Shown one piece after another: positions 5,533 to 26,122 of a stretch of DNA of 32,000 nt. The translations under genes and the position numbers were made by a program. Each line of letters begins with the position of its first letter. The first letter of the stretch is position 1. This DNA is from Candidatus Kuenenia stuttgartensis (GTDB lineage Bacteria; Planctomycetota; Brocadiia; Brocadiales; Brocadiaceae), in NCBI RefSeq assembly GCF_900232105.1, contig NZ_LT934425.1:3930001-3962000 (forward strand), read 5' to 3'. The notes beneath the pieces are model-generated. The model did no database searches. It saw only the letters and a program-made list of their open reading frames with translations, and had not been told where the DNA came from.

Positions 5533-6081
5533 CTATAATACTCCTTTAGGCGGGAAAAGTTTTTCAATCAAAGTTCTTATAAAGGCAAGTTCTTCCTTTT
5601 GTTTTTCAAGTGTTGATTCCATTATCGTTTGCTTCTTTTGCATCAACCATAACATTCTTAGAACAAATCCAAGAATTACAATGCTTATGGTAATAAAGAG
5701 GCCAAACATCCACTGGAGTATGTCAAACCTTTTGTCTACAGATGCGAATTTGGCGTTCATCTCAGAACGTAGGTCATCAAATCTCTTGTCGACAGCATCA
5801 AATCTTTTGTCGACAGATTCAAATCTCTTATCGACAGCATCAAATCTCTTATCGACAGCATCAAATTTTGTGTCAACAGATTCAAATCTTGTGTTCATTT
5901 CAGAACGCAGGCCTTCTAATTGTTTTTCTAAATTTTTTTGTCCGTATTCCAGTTGAGTAAGTCTTTCAATGATTTTCCTATCGGTAATCCTTGGAGCAAC
6001 TTCAACCTCAGCAGCAATAACGTGCGCTGTCTTTAATAAAACTACTGATAAACATAAAAATATCGTCAATGTTCTATACAT
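5533..6081 (-). CDS. Secreted or membrane-anchored coiled-coil protein with a heptad tandem repeat ([SA]VDKRF[DE])
   Basis: N-terminal signal-like segment MYRTLTIFLCLSVVLLKTAHVIAAE. Repeat block SVDTKFDAVDKRFDAVDKRFESVDKRFDAVDKRFDD. One predicted TM helix (WMFGLFITISIVILGFVLRMLWL) after the repeats. Confidence 0.6.
   Translation of the reverse strand: MYRTLTIFLCLSVVLLKTAHVIAAEVEVAPRITDRKIIERLTQLEYGQKNLEKQLEGLRSEMNTRFESVDTKFDAVDKRFDAVDKRFESVDKRFDAVDKRFDDLRSEMNAKFASVDKRFDILQWMFGLFITISIVILGFVLRMLWLMQKKQTIMESTLEKQKEELAFIRTLIEKLFPPKGVL
5775..5900. repeat. 21-bp tandem repeat, about 6 copies with the last one degenerate, in frame within CDS 5533..6081
   Basis: Plus-strand units atcaaatctcttgtcgacagc / atcaaatcttttgtcgacaga / ttcaaatctcttatcgacagc / atcaaatctcttatcgacagc / atcaaattttgtgtcaacaga / ttcaaatcttgtgttcatttc. 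Confidence 0.9.
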
Positions 6082-6986: not shown

Positions 6987-7154
6987 TTAACAGTGAGTCA
7001 AGCAATAAGTAAGGTGTTTTGTAAAATCGTAAAGATTTTAACAAATTAAGGACTGCTTGCTCAAAAAGGTAAGATTGTAAATATGCAGCTATCGATATAC
7101 AAGGGCTTATTGCCTGAACAGCAAAGATGATATTATGCATACAATAAATTGTCG

Positions 7155-7183
7155 TTGACTTTACATTTATTAGCCTGTACAAT
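7155..7183 (+). promoter_or_regulatory. Near-consensus sigma70-type promoter upstream of the acpS operon
   Basis: TTGACT (7155-7160), a 17-nt spacer, then TACAAT (7178-7183), about 50-65 nt upstream of the acpS start candidates. Confidence 0.45.
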
Positions 7184-7234
7184 GCGAAAAATTATATTAG
7201 ATACTTATTTTATAAGGAGTTACGATAGTTTTGG

Positions 7235-7648
7235 TTGGTTAGGATTTATATGTTTATAGGCATTGACATAGTTGAAATAAATCGTATAAAGAAGCTATGT
7301 ATTTCCAACGAAAGATTTTTAAATAAAATTTATACGGTGAAAGAACTTGAGTATTGTTTACCGAAAAAGAACAGACATCAACATTTAGCGGCACGTTTTG
7401 CTACGAAAGAAGCTATGTTCAAAGCTTTAGGAACCGGATGGACTGGTAAAATAAAATGGACTGACGTCGAGTTGTTAAATGATGAAAAAGGGAAGCCATA
7501 TCTGAATTTTTATGGAAATGTAAAAGAATTAGTTGAAGAGAAGAATATTAATACTGCCGAGGTCTCATTATCACATTGTAATGAATACGCTATTGCACAG
7601 GTGTTATTAGTGCCAGGAGCAGTATCTGCAGCATCATCAAAACTGTAA
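7235..7648 (+). CDS. acpS: Holo-[acyl-carrier-protein] synthase (4'-phosphopantetheinyl transferase)
   Basis: MFIGIDIVEINRI..., RFATKEAMFKALGTG, LSHCNEYAIAQVLL are collinear with AcpS. The likely start is the ATG at 7250 (MFIGID). Confidence 0.85.
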   Translation: MVRIYMFIGIDIVEINRIKKLCISNERFLNKIYTVKELEYCLPKKNRHQHLAARFATKEAMFKALGTGWTGKIKWTDVELLNDEKGKPYLNFYGNVKELVEEKNINTAEVSLSHCNEYAIAQVLLVPGAVSAASSKL

Positions 7649-7671
7649 ACGCTTATAAAAAGGGTAATTGC

Positions 7672-9153
7672 ATGAAAAAGCTCGTACTTATCAACCCGCA
7701 TCCAATGGGTAACGTTGGTGAGGAGAATGTGTCCGTATTAAACCAAATGCCGGTAAATCTTGGTTATTTGAAAGTGCTAACGCCCGGCAACTGGCAAGTC
7801 GATATCATTGATGAAACGCAGGAATATGCCATTGATGAAAATACAGGCGACATTACCTTTGGAGGCGCCGACCTGGTTGGGATTACCTCAGTAAGTTATC
7901 AGGCAGACCGTGCGTATAAAATAGCAACAGCCTGCAGAAAAAGAGGAATACCTGTAATTATGGGTGGCATTCATGCCACAAGCAATCCTGATGAGGCTGC
8001 AAAATATGTTGACAGTGTGGTGATCAGAGAGGGAATCACCCTTTGGTCAACCATTATTGATGATTTCGAAAAGGGTCGTCTCCGGAAAAGGTATGACGGC
8101 GGCCTTACCCCCATGGAAATCTACTGCAATTTAAGCCCTGATAGAAAGTTTTTGAAGGATAAATATAAATACCGGTATTCGGGGATTATTACCACCGCAG
8201 GGTGTCCGTTTGCCTGTGAATTTTGCTCCGTCCCACAATTTCAGGGTCAAAAATACAGGGAACGGCCTGTAGACGATATATTGAATGAATTTGAATCGAT
8301 AAAGGGACAATACCGCGGTTTGATTCTAACGGATGAAAATTTTTACGGACATAGTAAGAAATCTAATGAACGGGTTCGCACTCTTTTTAAAGGTATGGTC
8401 GAGAGAGGTATCTATCAAAACTGGTTCGGCTTTACCTCCCTTAATATATATAAGGATGACGAAACGCTTGAGTATATGGCGAAGAGTGGATGCGTTGGCG
8501 TGCTGATTGGCATAGAATCCATTGAGGAAGAATCTCTCAAGTCCATGAACAAAAATGTGAATTTGAAAATATCCGTAGAAAATTATTATGAGGCAATCGC
8601 TAACATAAGAAAACATGGTCTTGCCGTGTGGGGAACTATGGTATTCGGAAATGACGCCGATACCTCTGGCACGTTTGAACGGGTAGCCGATTTTATCCTT
8701 GATTCGCATATCGATATTATGACTTGCGGCATACTCTGTCCGTTTATCAATACGCCGCTTTATCACCGCCTGAACAGAGAAAACAGGCTTTTTCGTACAC
8801 ATTTTCCTGAAGATTGGAAATATTACACGTCGCATCATTTGACGTATGTATTGAAAAAACTGACCCTCGATGAAATGATCGAGGGGTTCCAATACCTTTA
8901 CGACAGGATTTTTGCCACAGAGGTGTTGCGGAAGAGATTCCACCGCGCTAAGGATGAGTTGAATAATAATATGAATGCCGCTATGTTTGCATTTCGCGTG
9001 AATCTTGACTGGCAAAATGTGTATCAGCATTTGATTCAAAATCTAAAAGATTTACAGACCTCTGGCGATTATGAGGCAGCCTTAAAATGCTACGTTGATA
9101 CAGATAAGCAAGGCAAAGGGAAAAAATTAGCTTCAATTGAAGCAGCTCCTTAA
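7672..9153 (+). CDS. B12-binding-domain radical SAM protein
   Basis: N-terminal cobalamin-binding-like Rossmann segment (DLVGITSVSYQADRAYKIATACRKRGIPVIMGGIHAT), then a CxxxCxxC radical SAM cluster motif (CPFACEFC) and a long C-terminal extension. Confidence 0.8.
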   Translation: MKKLVLINPHPMGNVGEENVSVLNQMPVNLGYLKVLTPGNWQVDIIDETQEYAIDENTGDITFGGADLVGITSVSYQADRAYKIATACRKRGIPVIMGGIHATSNPDEAAKYVDSVVIREGITLWSTIIDDFEKGRLRKRYDGGLTPMEIYCNLSPDRKFLKDKYKYRYSGIITTAGCPFACEFCSVPQFQGQKYRERPVDDILNEFESIKGQYRGLILTDENFYGHSKKSNERVRTLFKGMVERGIYQNWFGFTSLNIYKDDETLEYMAKSGCVGVLIGIESIEEESLKSMNKNVNLKISVENYYEAIANIRKHGLAVWGTMVFGNDADTSGTFERVADFILDSHIDIMTCGILCPFINTPLYHRLNRENRLFRTHFPEDWKYYTSHHLTYVLKKLTLDEMIEGFQYLYDRIFATEVLRKRFHRAKDELNNNMNAAMFAFRVNLDWQNVYQHLIQNLKDLQTSGDYEAALKCYVDTDKQGKGKKLASIEAAP

Positions 9154-9256
9154 AATGTAGTTCCTTTTTTTGCAGATTTAAAACAGGCATCGTTCAGGTC
9201 AACTTATTTACATATACTCGTGGATAGTTGACCTCTCTTATTTTTGAGAACTGAAA

Positions 9257-10468
9257 ATGACAAAGGTCGTTATTACTGGATTAGGATTGGTCACTCCGGT
9301 TGGAACCGGTTTAAAAAAAAGCTGGGAATCTTTTGCACAAGGGCGTGATGGGGCTTGTGAAATGAAATCATTTGACACCTCCTTGTACAAGGTACACAGG
9401 TCGTGCGAGGTAAAGGATTTCTTCCTCGATGTCGAACTGGAAAACCAGATCAGCGAAAATACCCTTCACAAGTATGTTTATTATGCGGCAAGAGAGGCAT
9501 TGCTGGAAAGCGGATTACATGGAGATAAGAAATCGGGTAGAGAACGGTTTGGTATTGCCATAGGAACGCTTGCTGCAGAGCTGACCCCTTTTGAGCGACT
9601 TTTAAGAAAAAACACTTCTTTAAAAAATAATGGATTCGACCACAAAGTAGCTGCGGTATACCCCCCCAATTCTATCACGAAGATGCTGGCAAATTATTTC
9701 AACTTTGAAGGGCAGTCAATGATATCCCTTAATGCCTGCTCTTCCGGGAATCATGCCATTGCCTGGGCGTATGACCGTCTGATTGACAATAAGCTTGATG
9801 TGGTAATGGTGGGAGGAGCCGATATGATTCCTCAAACGGAATTTACCCACTTTCATAATCTTAAGGCATTAACGCCTGATAAATGCCAGCCTTTTGACAA
9901 GAATCGTAAGGGGCTTATGATTGGAGAGGGCGCTGGTATATTGATTATGGAACGTTATGAATATGCAAAAAATCGCGGCGCTGCAATTATTGCCGAAATG
10001 GCGGGATATGGGCTGAGTTGCGACGGGTTTCACATGACTGCCCCGCATCCGGAAGGGGATGGGGCGGTAAAATCCATGAGTGATGCGCTTAAAATGGCGA
10101 GAATGAATCCGGAGGATATCGGATATATTAACGCTCACGGAACTGGTACGCCACATAATGATAGAACGGAGACTATTGCGATAAAAAGAGTTTTCGGTGA
10201 GCATGCTTACAAAATTCCGTGTAGTTCCACGAAGTCCATGATAGGACACCTCATGGGCGCCGCAAGCGCCGTGGAGTCTGTAATATGTTGTTTAGTATTG
10301 AGGCATGGTATAATTCCTCCAACAATCAATTACGAGACCCCTGACCCGGAATGCAATCTGGATGTAACGCCAAACAATGCCCGCGAGGCAAATGTATCCT
10401 GTATTGTTAATAATTCATTTGCCTTCGGGGGCAATAATGCAACTACTATTTTTAGAAAATTAGAGTAA
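9257..10468 (+). CDS. fabF: Beta-ketoacyl-ACP synthase II-type ketosynthase with an intact Cys-His-His triad
   Basis: LNACSSGNHAI (active-site Cys), NAHGTGTPHND (His), SSTKSMIGHLMGAAS (Lys/His), C-terminal NSFAFGGNNAT. Confidence 0.85.
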   Translation: MTKVVITGLGLVTPVGTGLKKSWESFAQGRDGACEMKSFDTSLYKVHRSCEVKDFFLDVELENQISENTLHKYVYYAAREALLESGLHGDKKSGRERFGIAIGTLAAELTPFERLLRKNTSLKNNGFDHKVAAVYPPNSITKMLANYFNFEGQSMISLNACSSGNHAIAWAYDRLIDNKLDVVMVGGADMIPQTEFTHFHNLKALTPDKCQPFDKNRKGLMIGEGAGILIMERYEYAKNRGAAIIAEMAGYGLSCDGFHMTAPHPEGDGAVKSMSDALKMARMNPEDIGYINAHGTGTPHNDRTETIAIKRVFGEHAYKIPCSSTKSMIGHLMGAASAVESVICCLVLRHGIIPPTINYETPDPECNLDVTPNNAREANVSCIVNNSFAFGGNNATTIFRKLE

Positions 10469-10486
10469 TTAACCAATAATAAGGGC

Positions 10487-11722
10487 ATGAAAAAAAGGGT
10501 AGTGATAACAGGATTGGGGGCGGTATCGCCCCTTGGAAATACGAAAGAAGAATTCTGGAATGGACTTGTAGAAGGGAAATCAGGCATTGCCCCGATGACT
10601 TCACTTGATTTATCCTGTTATAAGTCCAAATTAGGCGGGGAAGTACGCGATCTCCTGCCGGAAATCCATTTGGGGAAAAAGGGGCTGCGTTATTTGAATA
10701 AAGGCACATACTTTCTCGGTTCTGCCGCTAAAATGGCACTTGATGATTCAAAATTACCTCAGGATGGTTCTCTGGAAGATACGATTGGCATTATTATCGG
10801 GTCATCTCTGGGAAATTTTTCTGAAACTACAGATTATTTTTATGAAATAATACGGAATAACCCGTCAGAATTGTCCCCTATGTGCAGTTACGATGTGGCA
10901 TTAAACTCTTCTGTCAATTATGTGTCCGTTCTCTTTAAAGCAAAAGGGCCCGTTCGTACTATTTCTGCAGGATTTACGTCAAGCATCGATGCCATAGAAG
11001 ATGCATACCGAATGATACGGAATGATAGGGCAAAAGTTATGATAACCGGTGGTGTTGAGCAGATTTCCATTGATTTGTATTTGATATTTTACCTCAGAAA
11101 ATATCTTTCCGGTATCAATGGGGGGCAGGAAATTAGCGCTCCCTTCGATGCAAAACGAAACGGATTCATTATGGCAGAGGGTAGCTATGTAATCATCCTT
11201 GAAGAGCTTCAGCACGCATTGGAAAGGGGCGCCTCCATTTATGGTGAAATAAAAGGATTTGGGAATACCTATGTGGGTGCAAAAAATTATTCTCTCCTTG
11301 AAAGAGTAAGCAGTGTTGAAAAAGCCATGCAGGAAGCATTACAGCGAGCGGGGATAAAGAAGGAAGATTTAGATTGCATGAGCGTAAATGCGAATGGATG
11401 CAAAATACAGGACCCCATAGAGGCAAACGCCATACAATTTCTGTATGGTGAGGACGTAAAACATATCCCTATATCTGCAATAAAATCAAACGTGGGAGAG
11501 TCTTACGGTACGGCAGGCGCCGCACAACTAGTTTCAACGGCTATGTCTATTAATAACGGCGTTATACCCCACATCATCAATCACCAGGGAAAAGAGCCGG
11601 AAAATAACCTCAACCTCGTCCTCGGTAAACCACTTCGCAAACAAACCAACCATGCAATGATTAACAACATGGATTTTGAAGGTAATAATTCTTGTCTGGT
11701 CGTGAGCCGCTTCACTCAATAA
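10487..11722 (+). CDS. Ketosynthase-like protein lacking the catalytic triad (CLF / KS-beta-like partner)
   Basis: Full-length thiolase-fold KS homologue. By manual alignment to FabF, Cys is replaced by Phe163 (ISAGFTSSIDAI), His by Asn303 (VNANGCKIQD) and His by Glu338 (IKSNVGESYGTAG). Starts 18 nt after the stop of the upstream KS. Confidence 0.75.
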   Translation: MKKRVVITGLGAVSPLGNTKEEFWNGLVEGKSGIAPMTSLDLSCYKSKLGGEVRDLLPEIHLGKKGLRYLNKGTYFLGSAAKMALDDSKLPQDGSLEDTIGIIIGSSLGNFSETTDYFYEIIRNNPSELSPMCSYDVALNSSVNYVSVLFKAKGPVRTISAGFTSSIDAIEDAYRMIRNDRAKVMITGGVEQISIDLYLIFYLRKYLSGINGGQEISAPFDAKRNGFIMAEGSYVIILEELQHALERGASIYGEIKGFGNTYVGAKNYSLLERVSSVEKAMQEALQRAGIKKEDLDCMSVNANGCKIQDPIEANAIQFLYGEDVKHIPISAIKSNVGESYGTAGAAQLVSTAMSINNGVIPHIINHQGKEPENNLNLVLGKPLRKQTNHAMINNMDFEGNNSCLVVSRFTQ

Positions 11723-11753: not shown

Positions 11754-11809
11754 GGGACACATCCCATTTAACCTACTATACAACTATTAAGTAATTGGGA
11801 TGTGTTCCC
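11754..11809. repeat. Imperfect inverted repeat (13/14 bp) between convergent genes
   Basis: gggacacatccca (11754-11766) versus tgggatgtgttccc (11796-11809). The right arm encodes the atypical C-terminal tail of the GxxExxY ORF. Confidence 0.6.
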
Positions 11810-12134
11810 ATTTTCCCCCAGTTATCTTGAGGTAATTCAATATCTGGCCGCGTTCAATATCGGTGATTTTCTTGATGGTTTTGGTATCCACAACTATCTG
11901 ATCGAAAACAATAAGGTCGGGAATGTATTTCCCCATCTTCACCGATTTATAGATCACATCAAAACGCGGTTGCTGGTTAACGGGAATCCCCCGTGGTCCT
12001 AACTCTACGACCAAAGCATTCTCGTATGGCTTTTCCAACAAACCATGTCCAAACGTATTCAGCACTTCCATAGCATCGCCAACTACCTGAAATACTTCCT
12101 CCTTCAGTATCAGACTACACATTGCGTCAGTCAT
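11787..12134 (-). CDS. GxxExxY family protein (PD-(D/E)XK-like fold), with an apparently replaced C-terminal end
   Basis: GHGLLEKPYENALVVEL...YIPDLIVFDQIVVDTKT...ERGQILNYLKITG matches the GxxExxY family pattern. The expected hydrophobic C-terminal strand is replaced by GKWEHIPIT. Confidence 0.7.
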   Translation of the reverse strand: MTDAMCSLILKEEVFQVVGDAMEVLNTFGHGLLEKPYENALVVELGPRGIPVNQQPRFDVIYKSVKMGKYIPDLIVFDQIVVDTKTIKKITDIERGQILNYLKITGGKWEHIPIT

Positions 12135-12141
12135 TGGCGTC

Positions 12142-12571
12142 CTATGCTGGAAGAATTTTACGTTCGTGAGCTATTTCAAAACCATCAGGGACCGGCTTGA
12201 ACAGTTTATCTGGCGAACGGTGACTGCTTTGGAAAGTGCGCAGTGTCTGAATGTCGATTGCGCCGGTTACGAAATAATCCTCTACTCCACCTTTTACTCG
12301 TACAATGTCGCGCATCCAGCTGTCCTTATGCGGAGCGCGGATTCGGCTATCGCCGTATTGGCGATCATTACACTGGATGATGTAGGAATGAATATCCAAA
12401 GCGGCAGACTCCACCAGAGCGTTGAAAGATTCCGTGTCCTGATTCCATTCAAGCACAAACAGGGCGTCCACTTTTCCGCGCAAGGCACTGCGGTAAGCGA
12501 TATTTGTCAGCTCGCTACAGACAAGTAGCGCAAATTGAAAGTCGCCATGGTTGATGAGCGGTGGTGATGCC
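12142..12571 (-). pseudogene. 3' fragment of a carbon-nitrogen hydrolase-fold gene split by an IS insertion
   Basis: Carries the Cys-containing segment FALLVCSEL and the downstream CN-hydrolase-like core. It joins in frame to fragment 13958..14748 once the IS and one TSD copy are removed. Confidence 0.75.
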
Positions 12572-13957
12572 CCATAAGCGCTAACTTGTTTTATTGACAA
12601 ATTTTATTCATCATGGTATTTTTATGTTAATTATCCCGCTAATCACTCTATAGGAGGATAAAGCCATGATGAGAGAAGATTGGGATCTTCTAAGAACTTT
12701 CTTCCCAAACGATTGGAAAAGTTTAGCCGTTGATACAAATGCTTTAAAAGGCTTGCGCAAGGATAAATCTGAAGAAAAGCTTCTTCGAACATTATTAATT
12801 CATTTAGGATGTGGCTATTCATTGCGTGAAACAGTAGTTCGAGCCAAGCGTGCTAACTTAGCAGATTTATCCGATGTTGCCTTATTAAAGCGATTAAAAA
12901 AGAGCAAAGAATGGCTATATAAATTATGTTTATCTTTATTCCGTGAGCGTGGCCTCCAAATTAATAAACGGAATAATTTTCATCTTCGCTTATTTGATGC
13001 AACAACAGTAAAGGAACCTGGGAAAACAGGAAGTCTTTGGCGCATTCATTATAGTATTGAGGTTCCTTCATTATCTTGCGATTTCTTTAAACTTACGGGA
13101 ACTGAAGGAGAAGGCACAGGAGAATCTTTTCGGCAGTTTCCGATGAAAAAAGATGATTATATTATAGCTGACAGAGGTTACTGTACTGGCCAAGGAATTC
13201 ATCATGCAACAAGGAAAGGCGCTTATCTTAGCGTTAGAGTTAATTCGCAATCTCTACGGATATTCGGCGAAGAAAAGAAACCCTTTCCTTTATTGAAAGA
13301 AATCCAATATTTAAAAAGACCCCTTGCTATAAAATCATGGAACGTTTTTATTCCAAACGTTGATAATACTGAATATGTCAAAGGTCGTCTTTGTATAATA
13401 CACAAAACAGAAGAAGCCATTAAAATAGCTCATAAAAAACTTAAAAGACATGCAAGCAAAAAGGGCATTGAACTAAAACCGGAGACCCTTATTTATGCCA
13501 AGTACGTAATAGTATTCACAACGTTTCCTGAAAATCAATTTACCGCTTTTGATATCTTAGAATGGTATCGAGTTCGATGGCAAATTGAACTGGTCTTTAA
13601 AAGATTTAAACAAATAGCACAATTTGGACACTTACCTAAATACGATGATGATAGCTCAAAAGCTTGGCTTTATGGCAAACTATTCGTTGCTCTTTTGACA
13701 GAAAAACTAATAGATTTTGCTACGTCTTTTTCCCCCTGGGGATACTTCATTGTCAAGCAAGAAGACTAAAAGCAAATGGCGTGAATTTGCTTTTATGCTT
13801 AATCAAGTAAAACGGGCTATAGAACCAGCGTTATCATTACAGGAAGTTCTTAAGTGCTGGAATGACATTGCTTGTTCTTTAGCAGAAAATACAAGAATCC
13901 GAAAAACACAGATATCAAAATACTTCGAGCGCACCTAAAACAAGTTAGCGCTTATGG
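12572..13957 (+). mobile_element. IS4-family insertion sequence (1386 bp) with 22-bp perfect terminal inverted repeats and a 9-bp target-site duplication
   Basis: IRL ccataagcgctaacttgtttta (12572-12593) is the exact reverse complement of 13936-13957. Flanking direct repeat ggtgatgcc at 12563-12571 and 13958-13966. Confidence 0.9.
12666..13769 (+). CDS. IS4-family DDE transposase; the C-terminal ~60 aa continue in the +1 frame (13717..13938)
   Basis: ADRGY (second Asp) and YRVRWQIELVFKRFK (the Y-R-E-K signature of IS4-type transposases). The tail ...SKWREFAFML... lies in a different frame, so there is an apparent frameshift near the homopolymers around 13731-13770. Confidence 0.8.
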   Translation: MMREDWDLLRTFFPNDWKSLAVDTNALKGLRKDKSEEKLLRTLLIHLGCGYSLRETVVRAKRANLADLSDVALLKRLKKSKEWLYKLCLSLFRERGLQINKRNNFHLRLFDATTVKEPGKTGSLWRIHYSIEVPSLSCDFFKLTGTEGEGTGESFRQFPMKKDDYIIADRGYCTGQGIHHATRKGAYLSVRVNSQSLRIFGEEKKPFPLLKEIQYLKRPLAIKSWNVFIPNVDNTEYVKGRLCIIHKTEEAIKIAHKKLKRHASKKGIELKPETLIYAKYVIVFTTFPENQFTAFDILEWYRVRWQIELVFKRFKQIAQFGHLPKYDDDSSKAWLYGKLFVALLTEKLIDFATSFSPWGYFIVKQED

Positions 13958-14748
13958 GGTGATGCCCACGGCTTTAGTTGAGGTCGAAGGGTTTTGCCGC
14001 TGACGCGATGCAATTCCTGTTCTTCGTGCAAAGCCGGATGCTGTTTGTCCTGCCGGTAAATCATGGTTGTTGGAAAACCGAACGCATCGTGTAACAGCGC
14101 CGCCCAAACCTGATTATGCACAGTGTTTTTCGGTGCATGCAGATATTCGATGCCACAAATAAGCGAAATCCTCTTGCCTTGCAGTTTGCGCACTATGGCG
14201 AGGAACCAGTGTATTGGTATGGAAAGTTCCGACAGAATGAGATAATCGAGGCGTTTTCGACATTGGATGACACTGTTCAGCAAATGATTGAGGCGATCTA
14301 AACGCGGAACGTCAGGATCGGGATGGCGACTGGCAGAGGCGATCCAGCTTTTTATATCCGTCTTCCAACTGGTTATCGCGATGAGTATGGGGTTTTGAGA
14401 CCGTTCGCCATAAGGTATTTCTATCGGATACCCCGGCTTGGAGTTTTTGAAGATTGGCAAGTTGCCTTCTGGCCTAAATCCACGCAGCGCCAGCAGGCAG
14501 TCTGCTATTTCGGTGGAGCCTTCTTTTGAAAAGGGATCGGCATGTAGGATGTAGATGTCATGAATGCCTAAGGGCCTGGTCGGAAACAAGAGACCAGACG
14601 AGGTTTTCTCCGTGCTGGGCACTTTTGCCAGCCGCATGACAATGTGATATCCTTTAAGAATCGTATTCCCTAGCAAAGCTGAAACACCTGAACTATCAAA
14701 ATTGCCGAGTTCTTTTCGGGCTATCGGGGAACGCGTCAGGCCGGACAA
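13958..14748 (-). pseudogene. 5' fragment of the IS-disrupted carbon-nitrogen hydrolase-fold gene
   Basis: Contains the Glu segment DYLILSELSIP and the Lys segment YRQDKQHPA. In the current state it reads into the IS and stops at 13945. The start is uncertain: TTG at 14748, with a stop three codons upstream. Confidence 0.7.
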
Positions 14749-15161
14749 TGCGGGTTGCTACGTCTTAGAATAAATGCTCCAAAAATGCCCAATTAGTCTC
14801 AGAATATTTGAGTCTAATACCCAGCAAATGATTTGAAAAATCTTACCCAGCTACCCCGCCTTTTTTTTATCCTGCGTAAGTATTTCACTTGATTTTTTGT
14901 TCACGTTAAGAAAAATACATCGTTTACCCCGTTAGAAAGAAGTTCCGTCCGTAAGGCGGAGTAAAGCCTCATTAAATAGTTTGGAAGAGGTTAAAACCAC
15001 TTCCAAACTTCCTAACGGCGGTTTACTTCCCAGTTCCCCGTTTTCACGAGGACAAGTTTTGTAAGATTTTTCCGGAACATAAAAAACTCAGGGCAGGAGG
15101 ACCGAACGTTGGGAAACTTCATCCTCCTGCCCATTTCCCCCCTATACAAAGGAGGCAGTGC

Positions 15162-15800
15162 GTGAATATTATAGAAAAAATCCACAAGCATGAAAAGCTT
15201 ATTGCGACAAAACAGAAGCCATGCTTTTGTCCAAAGTGCAAGAGTACCCATGTCAATTTCACCCTTCATGAATGCAGATATCGGTTGTTTCACGTTATTA
15301 TCGACTCCCTTGTTCATACGATAGAATCTTTCCTGGGACGTTGGAAATGTTCCTTGTGCAAGAAGACGTTTACTTCCTATCCTGAGTATGCGCTCCCTTA
15401 CAAGCGGTACGTAAAGGATCACTGTCTCTCCTTCAGTCAGGCTTATGTCAAAGATGATACAGAAACCTACCGGAGTGTCTCCTCTGCCATCGGATATACT
15501 ACCCGAACACAGGAAATAGACAACCGCATGCTTGCCTGGTCAACCGTTTGGAGGTGGCTGCGTTTCTTTGGCTCACTGAAATACACACTCCGCAACGCCT
15601 TTGACCTCATCAGGCAGGCCGACCCCAACTCTCCGGTTTTTCGCCAAATGTTTCCCATTTACCACGGAAAGTATAAAAGCAAACAACGAAAAACCTCCCT
15701 CGATCAATCGATTCAATTGTTCAGCGCCGAGCCGGAATATCACCGAATTTTTGGGCATTCATTTTTCCCCGAACTGGCAACAAAAAGCGGCTGGTCTTGA
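15162..15800 (+). CDS. Zinc-ribbon protein (two CxxC pairs) of unknown function, first gene of the transposon module
   Basis: GTG start 7 nt after AAGGAGG. Contains CPKC...CSLC. I cannot assign a confident family. Confidence 0.5.
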   Translation: MNIIEKIHKHEKLIATKQKPCFCPKCKSTHVNFTLHECRYRLFHVIIDSLVHTIESFLGRWKCSLCKKTFTSYPEYALPYKRYVKDHCLSFSQAYVKDDTETYRSVSSAIGYTTRTQEIDNRMLAWSTVWRWLRFFGSLKYTLRNAFDLIRQADPNSPVFRQMFPIYHGKYKSKQRKTSLDQSIQLFSAEPEYHRIFGHSFFPELATKSGWS

Positions 15801-15838
15801 GTTACAATCACCTCCACACTTAAAAAAGGAGGTGAATT

Positions 15839-17399
15839 ATGAAATCGAAAGACGAAAAATGGGCTTTATTCTGGTGCAATCTTCTGCATCCTGTCATCTT
15901 CGGTGAGATTGAGAAGGAGCAGACCAACCTTTTTCTGAAAAAACTCTGCCTTCAGGAGGTCGTATTCCCCAACGGAAAGCGGAAAAGACCCACTATCTCT
16001 ACCCTCAGGAGAAAACTCAACCGCTACCGCAAAGATGGATTTCAATCTCTTGCAAGAAAGGCGAGGAGCGACCGTGGCGCATCCAGAAGGTTTTCTCCTG
16101 AAATTATCGACAAAGCCGTTGAACTCAAAAAAGAACAACCACGCCGCAGCGACGATTGCCTCAACCGCTTTCTTGAGAAATACTATGGGAAAACGATCCC
16201 CAAATCCACCCTCTACCGCCATCTCAGACTCGCAGGGGCGACCCGGCTCAAACTCGGCGTCTCACAGCAAAAGGTGCGTATACGCTCTTAGCCGTGAGCA
16301 TACCCACGACCTCTGGATTGGCGACTTCCAGGAAGGCCCTTTCGTGCTCGTTGACGGCGAGGCGCTTCCCACAAACCTCTGTCTCTTTATCGACTGCTAC
16401 AGCCGTTATGTGGTCGAAGGACGGTATTATCTCAAACAAACCCTCGATATCCTTATCGATTCTCTCATCAGGGCCTGGACTATCCACGGCTCGCCCAAAG
16501 AACTCTACCTCGACAATGCCAAGGTCTACCACTCTGACGCCCTGCGCTCTGCCTGTTACAACCTCGGCATTAAACTCATCCACAGACCACCACGCGACCC
16601 TGCTCCCGGCGGACTGGTCGAACGTTTCTTCGGCACCAGCCAGACACAGTTCGAGTCGGAAGTCCGCTCCGGCGACATTATCACCCTTGATGCCATTAAC
16701 CAGGCCTTCTCCGCTTACCTTGCCGTTGTCTATCACGCAAGAATCCACTCCGAAACCAATCAATCTCCAAAACAACGCTACGACGAGGGGCTTACCGTCA
16801 TCCGACACGTCGATATGGACGCCGCTCTTGCCTTCTTCATGAAACGCATCCCCAGAACCGTTGACAGAACCTTTGCCGATGTCCGCATTGATAACCGCTT
16901 TTACCGTGTTGACCCCAAACTCAGAGGCGATAAAGTAGAAGTCCGTTACGACCCATACGGCGATCTCAAAAAGGTCTTGATCTATTCCGCAAACGGTGAA
17001 TACCTCGGCTCGGGAAATCTCTACCTGCGCGACCAGGGCGCTGAAACTCCAGCCGCCTCACCTTCAAAACCAAAACATAATTACCTCGACCTTATCACTC
17101 AGAAACACAAATCCATTCTCCAGGCTCAGGCCAAAGGCATTGATTACCACCAAATCATCTCCGAACGACCCTGGCCATTCATGGCATTCGTCCAGAAACT
17201 CGCACTCCTCATGGGACACAAAGGCTCTCTCTCCGCCTTCAGCTCTCATGAACTCGAATCGCTTAAAAAATGCTACAACCGTATCCCCGCTCTCAACGAA
17301 TCATTGCTCACGGAGGCATTCCAAAATGCCTCCGTGAAAACCTTACCCTATATCATTCGTGAATTACAAATCGCTTACTCGAAAAAGGAGGTCTCTTAA
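15839..17399 (+). pseudogene. Mu/TnsB/TniA-like DDE (rve) transposase interrupted by a +1 frameshift near 16270-16291
   Basis: The N-terminal HTH part (15839..16291) ends ...QQKVRIRS*. The catalytic part continues in the +1 frame: SREHTHDLWIGDF (D), LYLDNAKVYHS (D), GGLVERFFGT (E). Mu-transposase-like C-terminal segment FYRVDPKLRGDKVEVRYDPYGDL. Confidence 0.75.
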
Positions 17400-17401
17400 C
17401 C

Positions 17402-18193
17402 ATGTTTACTTCTCATTTTTCCATGACTACTCAGCCGTTCTCTGAAAGAATCAACACCAGCCTTATCATGAAAGACGAACGCTTTACCCAGGGGCTTGCA
17501 CGACTCCAATACCTCTTACACTCAGGCTCTATCGCCGTCCTCTACGGACAGACGGGAGTCGGAAAATCCACACTCCTCAAACTCTTCCTCTCACAAATCC
17601 CCCAAAACCTGTTTCTCCCCATCTACCTCCATTTTACCCACCTAAAATCATCCAGCCTTCTCTCCTTAATCGTCTCCCAGCTCGGTGAAATACCAAAACA
17701 CACCAAAGACCGGCTCTTCCTCCAAATTATGGATAAATCCTTGCGCTCAAATCTCACTCCCATTATCGTTATCGACGAGGCTCATCTCCTGAAAACCGAC
17801 GCCATCACAGACCTCAGACTCCTTGTCAGCTCTCCGCTTGATTCTTCCACTCATCTCAAAATCATCCTCTCGGGACAGGAACACCTCAAATATATCCTCA
17901 AAAGAGACATCCATGCCGACTTCGCACAACGCATCTCGGTACATTACCACATTCATCCCCTTACTAAAACTCAAACCGCTGCATACATAGACTTCCATCT
18001 GAAATCTTCCGGCGCATCCGATAAAATCTTTGACTCAGACGTCAAAGACCTGATCCATGAGTTCTCCGCCGGCATCCCAAGGCAAATCAACGCCATTTCC
18101 ACCGCCTGCCTGATTAACGCTTCCATCAGACAATCACAGAAAATTACCCAGGATATCTTCCATCAGGCTCTTGCTGAAATTCAATCTTTTTAA
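17402..18193 (+). CDS. AAA+ ATPase, TniB / ExeA-like transposition helper
   Basis: Walker A YGQTGVGKSTLL, Walker B VIVIDEAHLL. Starts 2 nt after the transposase stop. Confidence 0.75.
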   Translation: MFTSHFSMTTQPFSERINTSLIMKDERFTQGLARLQYLLHSGSIAVLYGQTGVGKSTLLKLFLSQIPQNLFLPIYLHFTHLKSSSLLSLIVSQLGEIPKHTKDRLFLQIMDKSLRSNLTPIIVIDEAHLLKTDAITDLRLLVSSPLDSSTHLKIILSGQEHLKYILKRDIHADFAQRISVHYHIHPLTKTQTAAYIDFHLKSSGASDKIFDSDVKDLIHEFSAGIPRQINAISTACLINASIRQSQKITQDIFHQALAEIQSF

Positions 18194-18204
18194 GGAGGTC
18201 TACC

Positions 18205-18507
18205 ATGGCCCGTCTCTTTTCCCCTCAACTCTTGCGCTCATTACGAAACGATATCCCCATCGATCGACTCATCGCTGATGTCCTCTCCATACCTCATAAA
18301 TACTCCGAAGGCTATTTCCGCTTCCTCTGCCCTCTCTGTTCTGAATTTAATTCCGCCACCAACCCAAATACGAACCTCGCCAGGTGTTTCCGTTGTAAAA
18401 AAAACTTTAATACCATCGACATCGTCATGGTAGATTCCAACTCCTCTTTCCCAGATGCTGTCTATCTGCTAAAATCCGTTTTACCTCAATATATTAATTC
18501 CACTTAA
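18205..18507 (+). CDS. Small zinc-finger protein (CPLC...CFRC), reminiscent of a CHC2 primase-type finger
   Basis: 100-aa ORF with a strong RBS (TAAGGAGGTCTACCATG). FRFLCPLCSEF...LARCFRCKKNFNTIDIVM has the spacing of CHC2-type fingers. Confidence 0.5.
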   Translation: MARLFSPQLLRSLRNDIPIDRLIADVLSIPHKYSEGYFRFLCPLCSEFNSATNPNTNLARCFRCKKNFNTIDIVMVDSNSSFPDAVYLLKSVLPQYINST

Positions 18508-19278
18508 TCTGAGAATTCCAGGTTCATTTATTGTGGGGCTTAGCAATTACCCCTTTTCCCTTCGTGATGTATGTTCAAACGCATTAACCAGAGATGGTTT
18601 TACTTAATCTGTTTATCCATCTCCAACAAAGGACATTGTCAGTGCTTCGCTGAGAAATGGCAGTTGGCACGGAATAACACGCCACACTCATACACCCCAA
18701 AAGGTCGTCTGTACCTCGTAACTCCGTCATACCCCTCACGGGTATATGCTATCTTTCTACGCATACGGATTGCTCCATTGTGTGCGCATAGGCACAAACT
18801 TCTCTACGAGGATTAGGCTCGCAGAGGTGGTATTTTCAACCACTCAGGTATTCCATACTTCAAGGCACACACAACTCTATGTCTTCTAACCGCACATTCC
18901 CTGAAAGCACTATGATCCGAAACCGTTTCTCTATTTTCCGTTTCCTTTCACTATCTTAACCAGTAAATTCAGGCATTTCAACCTACTTTAACTCTCTCAG
19001 ATTAAAAAATTACGCTTGTTTTAGGATTAGATCCATCCCATGAGGAGAATTATCAAATTCCCCTCATGAGAGGGATTGGGATGAGTAAAAATGAATGCCG
19101 TTGGGTTTTTGCCTTTTAAAAACTCAGCCTAATTTCAGAACCCAGGAAGTGCCTTTTTAGTCAAAAAGTATGTAAGCTATTGAATTGTGTAGAGATAGGT
19201 GTATATAGAGAGAAGGCATTGCCATACGTGGGTGGAAAATGATATGATCCCTTTTTTTCGGAGAAAGGGCGGGTACTC

Positions 19279-19779
19279 ATGCCACAGTTAGTATTACCCC
19301 TATTTTCCCCTGACTGCAAACTGATAAATAATCAGGTAGGTTTTGAGAAAATAGGTAGCAAGATATATTATTTTCACGGAAGACTTCCTGTGTTTAGTCA
19401 TGAGGAAGACGACCTGGAATCATTTCGGTTCATCACCAGTCAATTAGTAGTCGGCGGTAATGTCAAGCAACAACAAATAGTGAAGGCCTTCGGTGTTTCG
19501 GCAATAAGTGTTAAGCGTAGTGTAAAGCGGCTAAGAGAACATGGGCCTAAGGGATTTTTCCGTCAGTCAGCGCGAACAAGGTCAGCCCATGTGCTTACGC
19601 CAGAGGTAAAAGCGAAGGTGCAAAAGTGCCTGGAAAGAGGGCAGAGTGTTTCAGAAACAGGTAAGAAGTTCAATATCAAATCAAGTACGATTCACAAGGC
19701 AATCCAAAGCGGTCAGTTAGAGAAAAAAAAACGGCAGAAAGCGCTCCGGAGCAAAGAAACAAAAGTGAGCGTGCCGTAA
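19279..19779 (+). CDS. IS OrfA, a helix-turn-helix DNA-binding protein
   Basis: Two HTH-like segments (QQQIVKAFGVSAISVKRSVKRL and SVSETGKKFNIKSSTIHKAI). Contains the A9 tract at 19723-19731 near its 3' end. Confidence 0.6.
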   Translation: MPQLVLPLFSPDCKLINNQVGFEKIGSKIYYFHGRLPVFSHEEDDLESFRFITSQLVVGGNVKQQQIVKAFGVSAISVKRSVKRLREHGPKGFFRQSARTRSAHVLTPEVKAKVQKCLERGQSVSETGKKFNIKSSTIHKAIQSGQLEKKKRQKALRSKETKVSVP

Positions 19780-19796
19780 CCGATAGTCGTGCTGGT

Positions 19797-21515
19797 ATGG
19801 GTCTTGGATGTACACGGGAACAAGAACGTGTAGAAGCCGCATTAGGTGGGCTTAATGAGGCAGTTCCGGCATTTGTTCCCGATCAGGACGTCAAATCGGC
19901 AGGGGTATTGTTTGCACTGCCGGCATTATTATTAAATGGTTTGCTAAAGTATGCAAACAACTATCTCTCATTTCCCAAAGGGTACTATGGATTACAATCG
20001 TTTCTGCTGCTACTGTCGTTTGCAGCCCTCTTAAGGATCAAATCACTGGAGGCAATTCGCTATTGTGAAGCTGGGGAATTGGGCAAGGCAATCGGGTTAG
20101 ACCGTATACCTGAAATACGAACACTGCGCAAAAAAGTGAAATATATAACAAACCATGGCGAACCTGAGCAGTGGAGCAAAGAGTTATCAAAATACTGGAT
20201 GGAAGAGGATCCGGAATTGGCCGGGATCCTTTACGTGGACGGCCATGTACGGGTATATAGCGGAAGCAAGACACCGTTACCGAAGCGGTATGTATCGAGG
20301 CAAAAGCTATGTTTAAGGGGTTTAACCGACTATTGGGTAAATGATGCAGTAGGTAAGCCATTTTTCGTGGTAAGCAAAGCGGTAAATTCCGGCTTGCTTT
20401 CGGTAATGAGAGAACAGATCATACCCCGGTTGCTCCGAGACATACCAAAGCAGCCTACCGGGGAAGAATTAAAAGCCAATCGTCATCTCTATCGCTTTGG
20501 TGTAGTATTTGACCGTGAGGGTTACAGTCCTGAGTTTTTCAAAGAAATGTGGGAGAAACGCATAGCGTGTTATACCTACAAAAAGTATGTAAATGATGTT
20601 TGGCCGGAATCAGAATTTATAGAGAAAGAGGTGGTTCTTAACAATGGCGAAGTGGTAAAGATGAAATTGGCGGAACGAGGAGTGTATTTCCGGAAGCAAG
20701 ACCTTTGGGTGCGCGAGATACGCAAATTGACCGATACAGGTCATCAGACATCGATAATAACCACTGATTTTATGAATAACGCTGAGGTACTGGCAGCAAG
20801 AATGTTCTCCAGATGGTCTCAGGAGAACTTTCTTAAATATATGATGGAACATTATGGTATAGACAGACTTATCGAGTACGAACAGGAGGCAATAAGTGAG
20901 ACGACAAAGGTGGTGAATCCCCGTTACAGGGAATTGGAAAGTCAGATAAAAACCAAAAGTACACTGTTAAACAGGCAGCGGGTAAAATATGGGGCATTGG
21001 TATTAAAAGCAGAAGGAGAAGAACCCGATATCCGGAAGTATGTACAGGAGAAAGCAACAATAAGAGAATCGATAGATACGCTGGAGAAAGAGATTGAACA
21101 ACTCAAGGCGACAAAAAAGAATACGGAGAAACATATAGAGTTTTCAAAACTCCCGGAAGATAAGAAATTTCAGGATTTAAAGAAGAGCGGAAAGCAATTC
21201 GTAGACACAATCAAAATGATTGCTTATCGGGCAGAGACGGCAATGGCAAATACATTGCAGGAATATATTTCTAAAAAAGATGAAGCAAGATCACTGGTAC
21301 GTCAAATTTTTATGACAGATGCAGATATAATGCCGGATGAAAAGAATGGCGTCTTAAGGATAACGATTCATAACATGACAAACCCAAGGAACAACAGATA
21401 TGTTCAGCAATTATGCGATGTACTTAATAGTTCCGAAACATTATTCCCAGGCACAAATCTGCGCCTTGTATATAATTTGGTATCAAATCAAATTCCACCA
21501 GATCAGGAGTTCTGA
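19797..21515 (+). CDS. IS OrfB, a putative DDE-type transposase; probably expressed as an OrfAB fusion by a -1 frameshift
   Basis: Candidate acidic triad contexts ILYVDGHVRVY, VFDREGYS and SRWSQENFLKYMMEHYGIDRL. This reading frame is open upstream back through the A9 tract, with no stop between 19731 and 19797. Confidence 0.6.
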   Translation: MGLGCTREQERVEAALGGLNEAVPAFVPDQDVKSAGVLFALPALLLNGLLKYANNYLSFPKGYYGLQSFLLLLSFAALLRIKSLEAIRYCEAGELGKAIGLDRIPEIRTLRKKVKYITNHGEPEQWSKELSKYWMEEDPELAGILYVDGHVRVYSGSKTPLPKRYVSRQKLCLRGLTDYWVNDAVGKPFFVVSKAVNSGLLSVMREQIIPRLLRDIPKQPTGEELKANRHLYRFGVVFDREGYSPEFFKEMWEKRIACYTYKKYVNDVWPESEFIEKEVVLNNGEVVKMKLAERGVYFRKQDLWVREIRKLTDTGHQTSIITTDFMNNAEVLAARMFSRWSQENFLKYMMEHYGIDRLIEYEQEAISETTKVVNPRYRELESQIKTKSTLLNRQRVKYGALVLKAEGEEPDIRKYVQEKATIRESIDTLEKEIEQLKATKKNTEKHIEFSKLPEDKKFQDLKKSGKQFVDTIKMIAYRAETAMANTLQEYISKKDEARSLVRQIFMTDADIMPDEKNGVLRITIHNMTNPRNNRYVQQLCDVLNSSETLFPGTNLRLVYNLVSNQIPPDQEF

Positions 21516-21616
21516 ATTTAAGTCTTGCGATCCTTTGCTTTGCGGCTTTCAGCGCCTTAAATAATGACGAGTTAGTTGGTACTATTTCTGTAGCCAATTC
21601 GTGAAATACAGGTATT

Positions 21617-21747
21617 TATACTCAATCAGACTGGAATCACTGGTTTCTGACATGCGCATTCATTGCCTTCTATGCCCTATCGATTAGGATCAACTTGGAT
21701 TATACTCAATCAAACTGAAGCCAGTGGTTTCAGTCTGATTGAGTATA
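21617..21747. repeat. Three copies of a ~17-nt motif TATACTCAATCAGACTG (two direct, one inverted, forming a 19-bp-stem hairpin)
   Basis: Copy A at 21617-21647 and copy B at 21701-21731 are ~31-nt direct repeats. 21731-21747 (cagtctgattgagtata) is the inverted copy. The 21701-21747 segment folds with one mismatch. Confidence 0.85.
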
Positions 21748-21914
21748 GTAATTGTTACTTTGGGGATATGGTCCGCAATACACCCGTTTTAAGGTATTGA
21801 CAGAATAAAAAAATTATTTATTCTACTACGGTCGTAAGCATTTATCCTTTAGCTGAAAGTGGTTTCTTTATTGCATTTTGAGGTTTATGGACTATCTATC
21901 TACGCATTAACTCA

Positions 21915-22045
21915 TTTCTAAGAAAAAGAGACCGAATAGAACTTAAAAAGGCGTATAAAAAATAGCATCAAAGACTCATGCCGACCGAATCAGGACGATA
22001 CTTCTTATTGATTCAGGATTGAGTTATGAAGAAGTGGCAAGATTA
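21915..22045 (+). pseudogene. Remnant of an IS630-like transposase N-terminal HTH region
   Basis: Frame-hopping translation gives LRKRDRIELKKAYKK* ... HADRIRTILLIDSGLSYEEVARL, which resembles the N-terminal HTH of IS630-type transposases. There is no catalytic domain. Confidence 0.35.
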
Positions 22046-22107
22046 ACAAACAATCAGGAATTAAGAAGAATTATACAAAAACAAAAATTATTTCAAAGGA
22101 AGAGAAA

Positions 22108-25983: not shown

Positions 25984-26122
25984 GGCATTATGCCTCCATA
26001 ACCTGCCAATAATTCAAATAGGCGGTTCAGATCATTAGGTCAGTGCAGATCGCGCTGACTACCTCGTATTCGAGCAAGGAGAGGGAGGCATCTTTATCAA
26101 AGAGTTCAGATTTTTTTCACGC

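Follow-up and report, generated by a model that had tools for sequence, protein, structure and literature searches.

The kuste2802-2805 operon of Candidatus Kuenenia stuttgartiensis as a probable AcpS-linked second copy of an anammox-specific ketosynthase and radical SAM module

The operon described here encodes a holo-(acyl carrier protein) synthase (AcpS; acyl carrier protein, ACP), a B12-binding-domain radical S-adenosylmethionine enzyme (rSAM), a FabF-type ketosynthase (KS1) and a catalytically dead ketosynthase (KS) paralogue (KS2). It lies within 32,000 nucleotides of Candidatus Kuenenia stuttgartiensis (contig NZ_LT934425.1, positions 3,930,001 to 3,962,000), which we refer to as the window and whose numbering is used throughout. 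We consider the locus, with a probability of roughly 0.6, to be the AcpS-linked second copy of an anammox-specific module composed of an active KS, a dead KS and a B12-binding rSAM. Its product is probably an anammox-specific lipid, most plausibly one belonging to the ladderane pathway. For about twenty years the biosynthesis of ladderanes has been an open problem of lipid biochemistry; the formation of cyclobutane has, to our knowledge, been assigned to no enzyme, and we know of no genetic system for anammox bacteria. The four-gene locus is already known as a candidate ladderane cluster and is rediscovered here, not new. What the present comparison adds are modest but usable leads, namely the paralogy of its ketosynthases to a solved pair resembling the heterodimers of a KS and a chain-length factor (CLF), an eight-gene ancestral operon and a conserved RNA hairpin. 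The four genes are as follows.

7250..7648, + strand: acpS (kuste2802), holo-ACP synthase; the open reading frame (ORF) opens with TTG at 7235, the likely start is ATG 7250
7672..9153, + strand: B12-binding-domain radical SAM enzyme (kuste2803), with the Pfam domains Radical_SAM and B12-binding
9257..10468, + strand: KS1 (kuste2804), FabF-type ketosynthase with intact Cys-His-His triad
10487..11722, + strand: KS2 (kuste2805), catalytically dead KS paralogue, putative chain-length-factor-like partner

This operon is kuste2802-2805 of Ca. Kuenenia stuttgartiensis. In pairwise comparison the window rSAM is identical with CAJ73554.1 (kuste2803) at 492 of 493 residues, KS1 with CAJ73555.1 (kuste2804) at 403 of 403, and KS2 with the K. 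stuttgartiensis protein QII12138.1 at 409 of 411; CAJ73554.1 and CAJ73555.1 also fall in the 90% clusters of the window rSAM and KS1 sequences. The rSAM, KS1 and KS2 of the window recur without any change in many assemblies, among them the K. stuttgartiensis genome of 4.4 Mb. A first-pass annotation, made from the sequence alone, had described four genes in one direction, separated by 23, 103 and 18 nt, which our ORF check matched exactly, and its domain assignments for all four proteins were upheld by Pfam and NCBIfam profile searches. The start of acpS follows from the 132-aa form annotated in six public assemblies, which corresponds to ATG 7250. With scores above cutoff for both TIGR00516 (97.4 bits, cutoff 59.8) and PF01648 (64.3 bits, cutoff 25), a single domain and a length in the range of about 125-135 aa, the protein is a 4'-phosphopantetheinyl transferase of the AcpS type, and kuste2802 is the sole acpS of the genome (PMC2649909, Table 1).

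KS1 and KS2 each contain the N- and C-terminal ketoacyl-synt domains of Pfam and share only 28% identity with one another. Alignment to B. subtilis FabF gives Cys/His/Lys/His at the active-site positions of KS1 and Phe/Asn/Lys/Glu at those of KS2, which confirms the earlier description of KS1 as canonical and of KS2 as devoid of catalytic residues. The changes in KS2, Phe at Cys163, Asn at His298 and Glu at His333 with Lys328 kept, agree with Table 2 of PMC2649909. The triad is missing from KS2 in all lineages examined, and the same Phe/Asn/Lys/Glu pattern occurs together with full length in 11 lineages.

Comparison of identities and tree topology shows, on the level of sequence, KS1, KS2 and the rSAM each to be a paralogue of the corresponding protein of Cluster I (kuste3603-3608). 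The identities amount to 55% for the rSAM (kuste3608), 45% for KS1 (kuste3605, amxFabF2) and 38% for KS2 (kuste3606, amxFabFmut). The best match of KS1 in the Protein Data Bank (PDB) is 9s5h_B (amxFabF2) with 395 bits, as compared to 305 bits for the best canonical FabF; that of KS2 is 9s5h_C (amxFabFmut) with 281 bits, as compared to 245 bits for canonical FabF and 139 bits for the act CLF. From the preprint and the tree we identify chains B and C of 9s5h/9s5i as the amxFabF2/amxFabFmut heterodimer of Brocadia fulgida. In a neighbour-joining tree built from 11 lineages each for KS1 and KS2, from two Cluster I pairs and from an outgroup of only three canonical FabFs, with bootstrap support counted by splits, the split uniting KS1 with amxFabF2 and that uniting KS2 with amxFabFmut were each recovered in 200 of 200 replicates. 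The exchanges of His for Asn and of His for Glu, seen in 11 lineages, are derived and common to both groups of dead KS, KS2 and amxFabFmut, while the Cys position is occupied by Phe in the KS2 group and by Val (also given as Val/Thr) in Cluster I. The simplest reading of these data would be that the KS/dead-KS pair plus B12-binding rSAM arose once and was then duplicated as a set.

The Cluster I pair has been solved as a heterodimer resembling KS/CLF (PDB 9s5h); its subunits are inactive singly and, when co-expressed, co-purify and decarboxylate malonyl-ACP (bioRxiv 10.64898/2026.05.19.726425). The same preprint does not mention kuste2804/2805. KS1 and KS2 share the features of the 9s5h type, with one triad-intact subunit, a partner lacking all three residues, and adjacent genes, and since the Cluster I pair is active only as a pair, we infer that they form a second heterodimer of this kind. 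The analogy with KS/CLF drawn in the first-pass annotation is thus backed by the solved structure of a paralogous pair. By the same analogy KS1 and KS2 would very probably be obligate partners, KS1 carrying out the decarboxylation of malonyl-ACP and the Claisen condensation, and KS2 merely shaping the acyl tunnel and so setting substrate or chain-length preference. KS2 was also considered as an actinobacterial CLF and rejected, as it has Phe and not Gln at the Cys position and scores 139 bits with the act CLF versus 245 with FabF.

The combination of a KS with an inactive KS is also that of type II polyketide synthases (PKS), and the closest structural homologue of the amxFabF2 subunit is the ishigamide KS according to the preprint; the 6kxd ketosynthase, apparently the same protein, reaches 277 bits with KS1. 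One could therefore imagine a secondary-metabolite cluster of the type II PKS or aryl-polyene kind, which would have nothing to do with membrane lipids and in which a KS/CLF-made polyketide or polyene is tailored by the rSAM. We regard this as quite improbable. The operon is present in essentially every sampled Brocadiales species, unlike accessory biosynthetic clusters, KS2 is by its scores FabF-derived and lacks the CLF Gln, and the cluster contains no ACP, cyclase, aromatase or thioesterase gene. In addition, the partner genes found downstream in other genera are of the fatty acid synthase (FAS) type and include a FabG equivalog, and no PKS was found in the genome by Rattray et al. 2009 (PMC2649909).

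A conservation scan of one genome per GTDB species yielded 77 Brocadiales loci and three distant non-anammox matches. The Brocadiales loci cover Kuenenia, Brocadia, Jettenia, Loosdrechtia, Scalindua, Anammoxibacter, Subterrananammoxibius and deep groundwater lineages, and the core is kept across about 60 species. Relative to the rSAM gene, and counting only loci whose contig permits assessment, acpS lies upstream in 65 of 67, KS1 downstream in 64 of 64 and KS2 in 59 of 60.

In Scalindua, Jettenia and many others the operon does not end with KS2 but continues with genes for a 673-aa FadH/OYE (old yellow enzyme) Fe-S flavoenzyme, a crotonase (ECH), a short-chain dehydrogenase/reductase (SDR) and a muconolactone-isomerase-like (MIase) protein. 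FadH/OYE follows KS2 within 1.5 kb in 30 of 49 assessable loci, and ECH, SDR and MIase-like genes occur in 23, 23 and 21, respectively, of the 44 loci with at least 5.5 kb of downstream sequence. The SDR exceeds the FabG equivalog cutoff (322 versus 298). We found no relevant literature that describes the eight-gene extension or ties the FadH/crotonase genes to the cluster. The first-pass annotation had noted that the window holds no ACP, ketoreductase (KR), dehydratase (DH) or enoyl reductase (ER) gene and had taken the operon for an add-on to type II FAS. Domain and homology scans of the window indeed detected no homologue of any of the four; as a general rule the statement does not hold and is specific to some genomes, and the add-on idea is limited because in most anammox lineages the operon runs on into reductase, crotonase and FabG.

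The four downstream genes are not adjacent to the core in Kuenenia, Brocadia and Loosdrechtia. K. stuttgartiensis keeps an OYE-crotonase pair on the same contig at a distance of about 82 kb, in B. pituitae the OYE is located elsewhere, and synteny comparison places the following region of the window where other anammox genera carry the FadH/OYE-ECH-FabG-MIase genes.

11787..13769: breakpoint region 3' of KS2, with a PD-(D/E)XK gene (- strand), a 152-aa ORF (- strand) and an IS4-family DDE transposase (+ strand), from Pfam and synteny

Because of the separated OYE-crotonase pair and the transposon genes 3' of KS2, the four-gene form of Kuenenia looks like a secondary break-up of the eight-gene operon.

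Could the arrangement be fortuitous, a housekeeping acpS next to redundant FabF paralogues, one of them decaying, and an unrelated rSAM gene, with no dedicated pathway behind it? The genome has acpS in a single copy (PMC2649909, Table 1), and expression of the four genes is moderate, below that of the canonical FAS genes; both points speak for such a scenario. It is strongly disfavoured nonetheless, and we hold it for very improbable: gene order is kept among families with only 50-75% protein identity, the constant Phe/Asn/Lys/Glu pattern and full length of KS2 in 11 lineages argue for purifying selection and not decay, and the trio appears duplicated as a set with Cluster I.

Two further loci were noticed in the scan. 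In the deep-branching Planctomycetota metagenome-assembled genome (MAG) CSMAG_693 the acpS module is found within 10 kb of the rSAM and phytoene-dehydrogenase-like (PDH) genes of Cluster I, on the opposite strand, a layout suggesting that the acpS module and Cluster I may once have been neighbours. A copy of the operon resembling that of Scalindua, its rSAM 78% identical, stands on contig CAXMPV010000029.1 of a MAG whose label is Thermodesulfobacteriota; this is most likely a binning error and not a non-anammox occurrence.

The third member of the trio, the rSAM, has Pfam matches to Radical_SAM (PF04055, 73 bits), to the B12-binding domain (PF02310, 32.1 bits, exactly at the cutoff) and to DUF4070. 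Its CxxxCxxC motif (C178/C182/C185) is invariant in 38 homologues and follows an N-terminal Rossmann-like B12-binding domain, the architecture of class B enzymes. In the NCBIfam profile search it reaches no curated family. Membership in TIGR04072 (lipid biosynthesis B12-binding/radical SAM) was ruled out at 77.2 bits against a cutoff of 360, which the Cluster I rSAM likewise misses with 87 bits, and the PhpK, BchE, HpnJ and HpnR families were ruled out by scores far below their cutoffs. The AlphaFold2 (AF2) model of the protein is confident, with a predicted local distance difference test (pLDDT) value of 89.8, and its nearest solved folds are MgmA, AprD4, TsrM, CysS, OxsB and TokK (template modelling (TM) scores 0.55-0.68, 13-19% identity), of which MgmA, TsrM, CysS, OxsB and TokK match over both domains. 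At the level of the model these matches confirm the class B architecture and do not tell methylation from other radical chemistry. AprD4, equally close in structure and possessing a B12 domain, is yet not cobalamin-dependent.

Against 1.84 billion representatives the scores of the rSAM fall from 555 to 408 bits and then form a continuum from 327 bits (42% identity) downwards, with 1,322 related representatives, one per 50%-identity cluster, at E <= 1e-30. From this drop and the continuum below it the anammox rSAMs emerge as a distinct branch of a large family. The closest non-anammox relatives share 34-37% identity. No KS pair stands beside the rSAM at the Lentisphaerae and Geobacteraceae loci, two of the three nearest non-anammox relatives, of which the third belongs to the Acidobacteriota, and the neighbours at the inspected non-anammox loci are genes for lipid A-acyltransferase, acyltransferase and thioesterase, or for FadL and an aminotransferase. 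The 55%-identical rSAM of Kuenenia was considered as a possible orthologue and dismissed, since its neighbourhood (ACP-FabZ-KS-KS-PDH-rSAM) identifies it as the Cluster I paralogue. The closest non-anammox relative of kuste2803 (34%), from a Geobacteraceae MAG, adjoins a true member of TIGR04072, 'rSAM_ladder_B12' (406 bits, 12757-14148 of that locus); its host is not known for ladderanes, so that the family name is misleading.

These properties bear on the possibility that the module makes methyl-branched, non-ladderane fatty acids, the rSAM acting as a class B C-methyltransferase on an unactivated methylene group of acyl-ACP and KS1/KS2 elongating or selecting the methylated chain. Most characterised cobalamin-dependent rSAM enzymes are methyltransferases, MgmA, TsrM, CysS and TokK are among the best structural neighbours, and the top weak NCBIfam match is the PhpK methyltransferase family. 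Fatty acids with a mid-chain methyl group, 10-methylhexadecanoic acid for instance, have been reported from anammox bacteria (Sinninghe Damste et al. 2005). Then again, such fatty acids occur beyond anammox bacteria and the trio does not, all rSAM family scores are far under their cutoffs, and the structural neighbours include, at equal closeness, the non-methylases AprD4 and OxsB. A similarity network groups kuste2803 with the non-methylating HpnJ and BchE (PMC9204698), and we found no literature tying 10-methyl fatty acids to the cluster. We deem a methyl-branched product unlikely.

For the preferred reading, an anammox-specific KS/dead-KS/rSAM module coupled to AcpS, the following course of events may be envisaged. 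AcpS would supply the holo form of an ACP encoded elsewhere, and the KS1/KS2 heterodimer would condense malonyl-ACP with the growing chain, the dead subunit setting chain shape and length. At an unactivated carbon of the ACP-bound chain, functionalisation would then be brought about by the 5'-deoxyadenosyl radical of the rSAM, probably together with cobalamin. Ancestrally, with all eight genes in place, FabG could provide keto reduction, the crotonase dehydration or isomerisation, and FadH/OYE enoyl or dienoyl reduction; the ancestral operon would thus bring along an elongation cycle of its own, built around the radical step.

The link of this locus to ladderanes is not new. Rattray et al. 2009 (PMC2649909) listed kuste2802-2805 among four candidate ladderane/FAS clusters. 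In their description kuste2802 is acpS, kuste2803 codes for a B12 SAM-radical enzyme, and the KS kuste2805 carries Phe163/Asn/Glu; kuste2803 was named as a candidate for the cyclisation chemistry (PMC2649909). The suggestion of a ladderane candidate from an anammox organism, which the first-pass annotation had made without knowing the source of the DNA, was therefore right, and its statement that product and chemistry are unresolved holds as well, as a 2026 review and a 2026 preprint both describe the ladderane pathway as still unknown. Javidpour et al. 2016 treated kuste2804 as FabF and kuste2805 as a non-canonical FabB (PMC4790861).

Several points speak against our reading. All four genes were synthesised and expressed in E. 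coli by Javidpour et al. 2016 and gave no new fatty acid, the proteins being insoluble (PMC4790861). The community consensus puts the central ladderane enzymes on Cluster I and not on kuste2802-2805. The connection of these genes with ladderanes rests on phyletic correlation and analogy, the operon encodes no ACP, methyltransferases make up most of the solved folds nearest to the rSAM, and the reductase and crotonase genes no longer adjoin the core in Kuenenia and Brocadia. Finally, acpS, being the only phosphopantetheinyl transferase gene of the genome, may sit here through housekeeping co-regulation and not as a member of the pathway. As to the first of these points, KS1 and KS2 had been divided between different synthetic operons (operons 3 and 4), each tested individually (PMC4790861), and this split, in addition to the insolubility of the proteins, weakens the negative result.

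That the rSAM kuste2803 itself makes the cyclobutane C-C bonds is a tentative proposal which we consider doubtful. Still less likely is a wider proposal, in which the AcpS-linked module together with the FadH/OYE, crotonase, FabG and MIase-like genes would be the missing second ladderane pathway. Cluster I, whose enzymes prefer C6-C8 chains, would then make only the short linear part, and the module would build or attach the cyclobutane ladder, the rSAM closing the rings by C-C chemistry on an enoyl or dienoyl intermediate bound to the ACP. Earlier heterologous failures would be due to the separation of KS1 from KS2 and to the four omitted partner genes. If this were true, the eight-gene operon would be the place to look for ladder formation.

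To find a long-listed candidate again changes nothing by itself. The comparative results could, however, sharpen experiments. Two paralogous KS/dead-KS/rSAM modules fit the 'two separate pathways' (type b) model and supply it with a concrete second gene set; the natural unit is probably the eight-gene operon of Jettenia or Scalindua, not the four genes of Kuenenia; and the paralogy suggests that KS1 and KS2 be handled as a co-expressed heterodimer, as the Cluster I paralogues required.

Two further elements of the operon concern its expression.

7155..7183, + strand: sigma-70-like promoter candidate TTGACT-17-TACAAT, function inferred
9196..9248, + strand: conserved RNA hairpin AGGUCAAC...GUUGACCU with 15 pairs, followed by a U-rich tract, in the gap between the rSAM and KS1 genes

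The near-consensus promoter claimed at first pass exists as a site, with 10 of 12 matches, and such sites are not enriched in the window: 13 were counted, as compared to 15 +/- 4.2 in shuffled sequence, and therefore TTGACT-17-TACAAT is no evidence on its own. In three Kuenenia-group genomes, those of the window, K. hertensis and a Lake-Kivu-type MAG, the -35 hexamer is invariant and the -10 hexamer kept as TAnAAT, and this conservation in two related genomes lends weak support to a promoter. The published values in fragments per transcript kilobase and million mapped reads (FPKM) are 33.9/32.4/24.0/34.8 for kuste2802/2803/2804/2805, below those of Cluster I and the canonical FAS genes. Their near equality is consistent with one transcription unit for the four genes, and hence with the co-transcription presumed earlier.

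The hairpin proper spans 9196-9234 with the U-rich tract 3' of it, and has a fold z of -2.0. It occurs at the same place in 26 Brocadiaceae loci, with an unchanged outer stem (AGGUCAAC/GUUGACCU) and a covarying inner one. In an alignment of 23 of the 26 loci 96.5% of cells pair, as compared to 25-41% in slid controls; compensatory changes affect four pairs, and there are many G.U pairs. The AT-rich hairpin was missed by a terminator scan of the window, and scans of the window with Rfam (gathering threshold) and for tRNAs gave no matches. Together with the U-rich tract it looks like an intrinsic terminator. FPKM values are, however, equal on both sides, which argues against efficient termination, and there is no room for a promoter before KS1. 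We therefore take it not for an operon boundary but for an element of attenuation, processing or mRNA stability. In deep-branching lineages the rSAM and KS1 genes overlap or lie a few nucleotides apart. The gap is also prone to insertions: a Jettenia locus carries a 217-aa DUF8196 ORF there (7034-7687 of that locus), and in Brocadia DTUAMX2 it has grown to 322 nt with a long, near-perfect palindrome resembling a miniature inverted-repeat transposable element (MITE).

The remainder of the window is rich in mobile elements. Directly after the operon, 12666-23393 holds genes for an IS4 DDE transposase, a Mu/Tn7-like transposase with its AAA_22 ATPase partner, a Transposase_29 protein and an rve fragment, and the region 3' of KS2 varies between K. 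stuttgartiensis assemblies. Amid mobile elements lies a bacterial archaeo-eukaryotic release-factor-like gene (baeRF family 3; 24410-25561). An ORF of at least 1987 aa (26039-32000), which runs off the end of the window, combines GT2, glucoamylase and GH94 domains in a giant protein resembling cyclic beta-1,2-glucan synthase; it has about 55% G+C in a region of about 40%, a composition that suggests horizontal acquisition. On the other side of the operon, the minus-strand ORF 5533-6081 encodes a small predicted membrane protein and contains a 21-bp tandem repeat of 5.5 copies (5775-5889) with a heptad-like DKRFDAV motif; since the protein measures 182, 175 or 161 aa in different assemblies, the repeat number is polymorphic.

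How does the AcpS-linked module relate to systems already described? The cluster of Rattray et al. 2009 and operons 3 and 4 of Javidpour et al. 2016 represent the same locus, with the order acpS, B12 rSAM, FabF, non-canonical KS and 99-100% identical proteins, the published kuste2802-2805 differing from the window only by one or two residues at strain level. In the published work the four genes are 'a complete cluster', whereas our comparison finds four further genes in most other anammox genera. TIGR04072 clusters of the Deltaproteobacteria Geobacter and Desulfotalea, which are syntenic with kuste3335-3352, also contain a B12-rSAM among fatty-acid-type genes; they differ in that no KS/dead-KS pair stands beside the rSAM and in that their hosts are not known to make ladderanes. 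The type II PKS KS/CLF pairs of actinorhodin (1tqy) and ishigamide (Iga11/Iga12, 6kxd) are alike in principle, with an active KS and an inactive homologue that shapes the tunnel or chain length encoded by adjacent genes, but KS2 stands outside their clade and has Phe where CLF has Gln, and a PKS-type ACP, cyclase and aromatase are missing. Cluster I comprises amxACP, amxFabZ, amxFabF2, amxFabFmut, the PDH enzyme and a B12-rSAM. The window locus is not Cluster I itself, as it lacks amxACP, amxFabZ and PDH, and Cluster I is located elsewhere in the genome. The two modules share the paralogous trio of active KS, dead KS and B12-rSAM with adjacent KS genes, and both extend across anammox lineages. 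Different from Cluster I, however, the module of the window has AcpS in place of ACP, FabZ and PDH, none of which is encoded in the window, its KS genes are reversed in order relative to the rSAM, and its ancestral partners are FadH/OYE, crotonase, FabG and the MIase-like protein.

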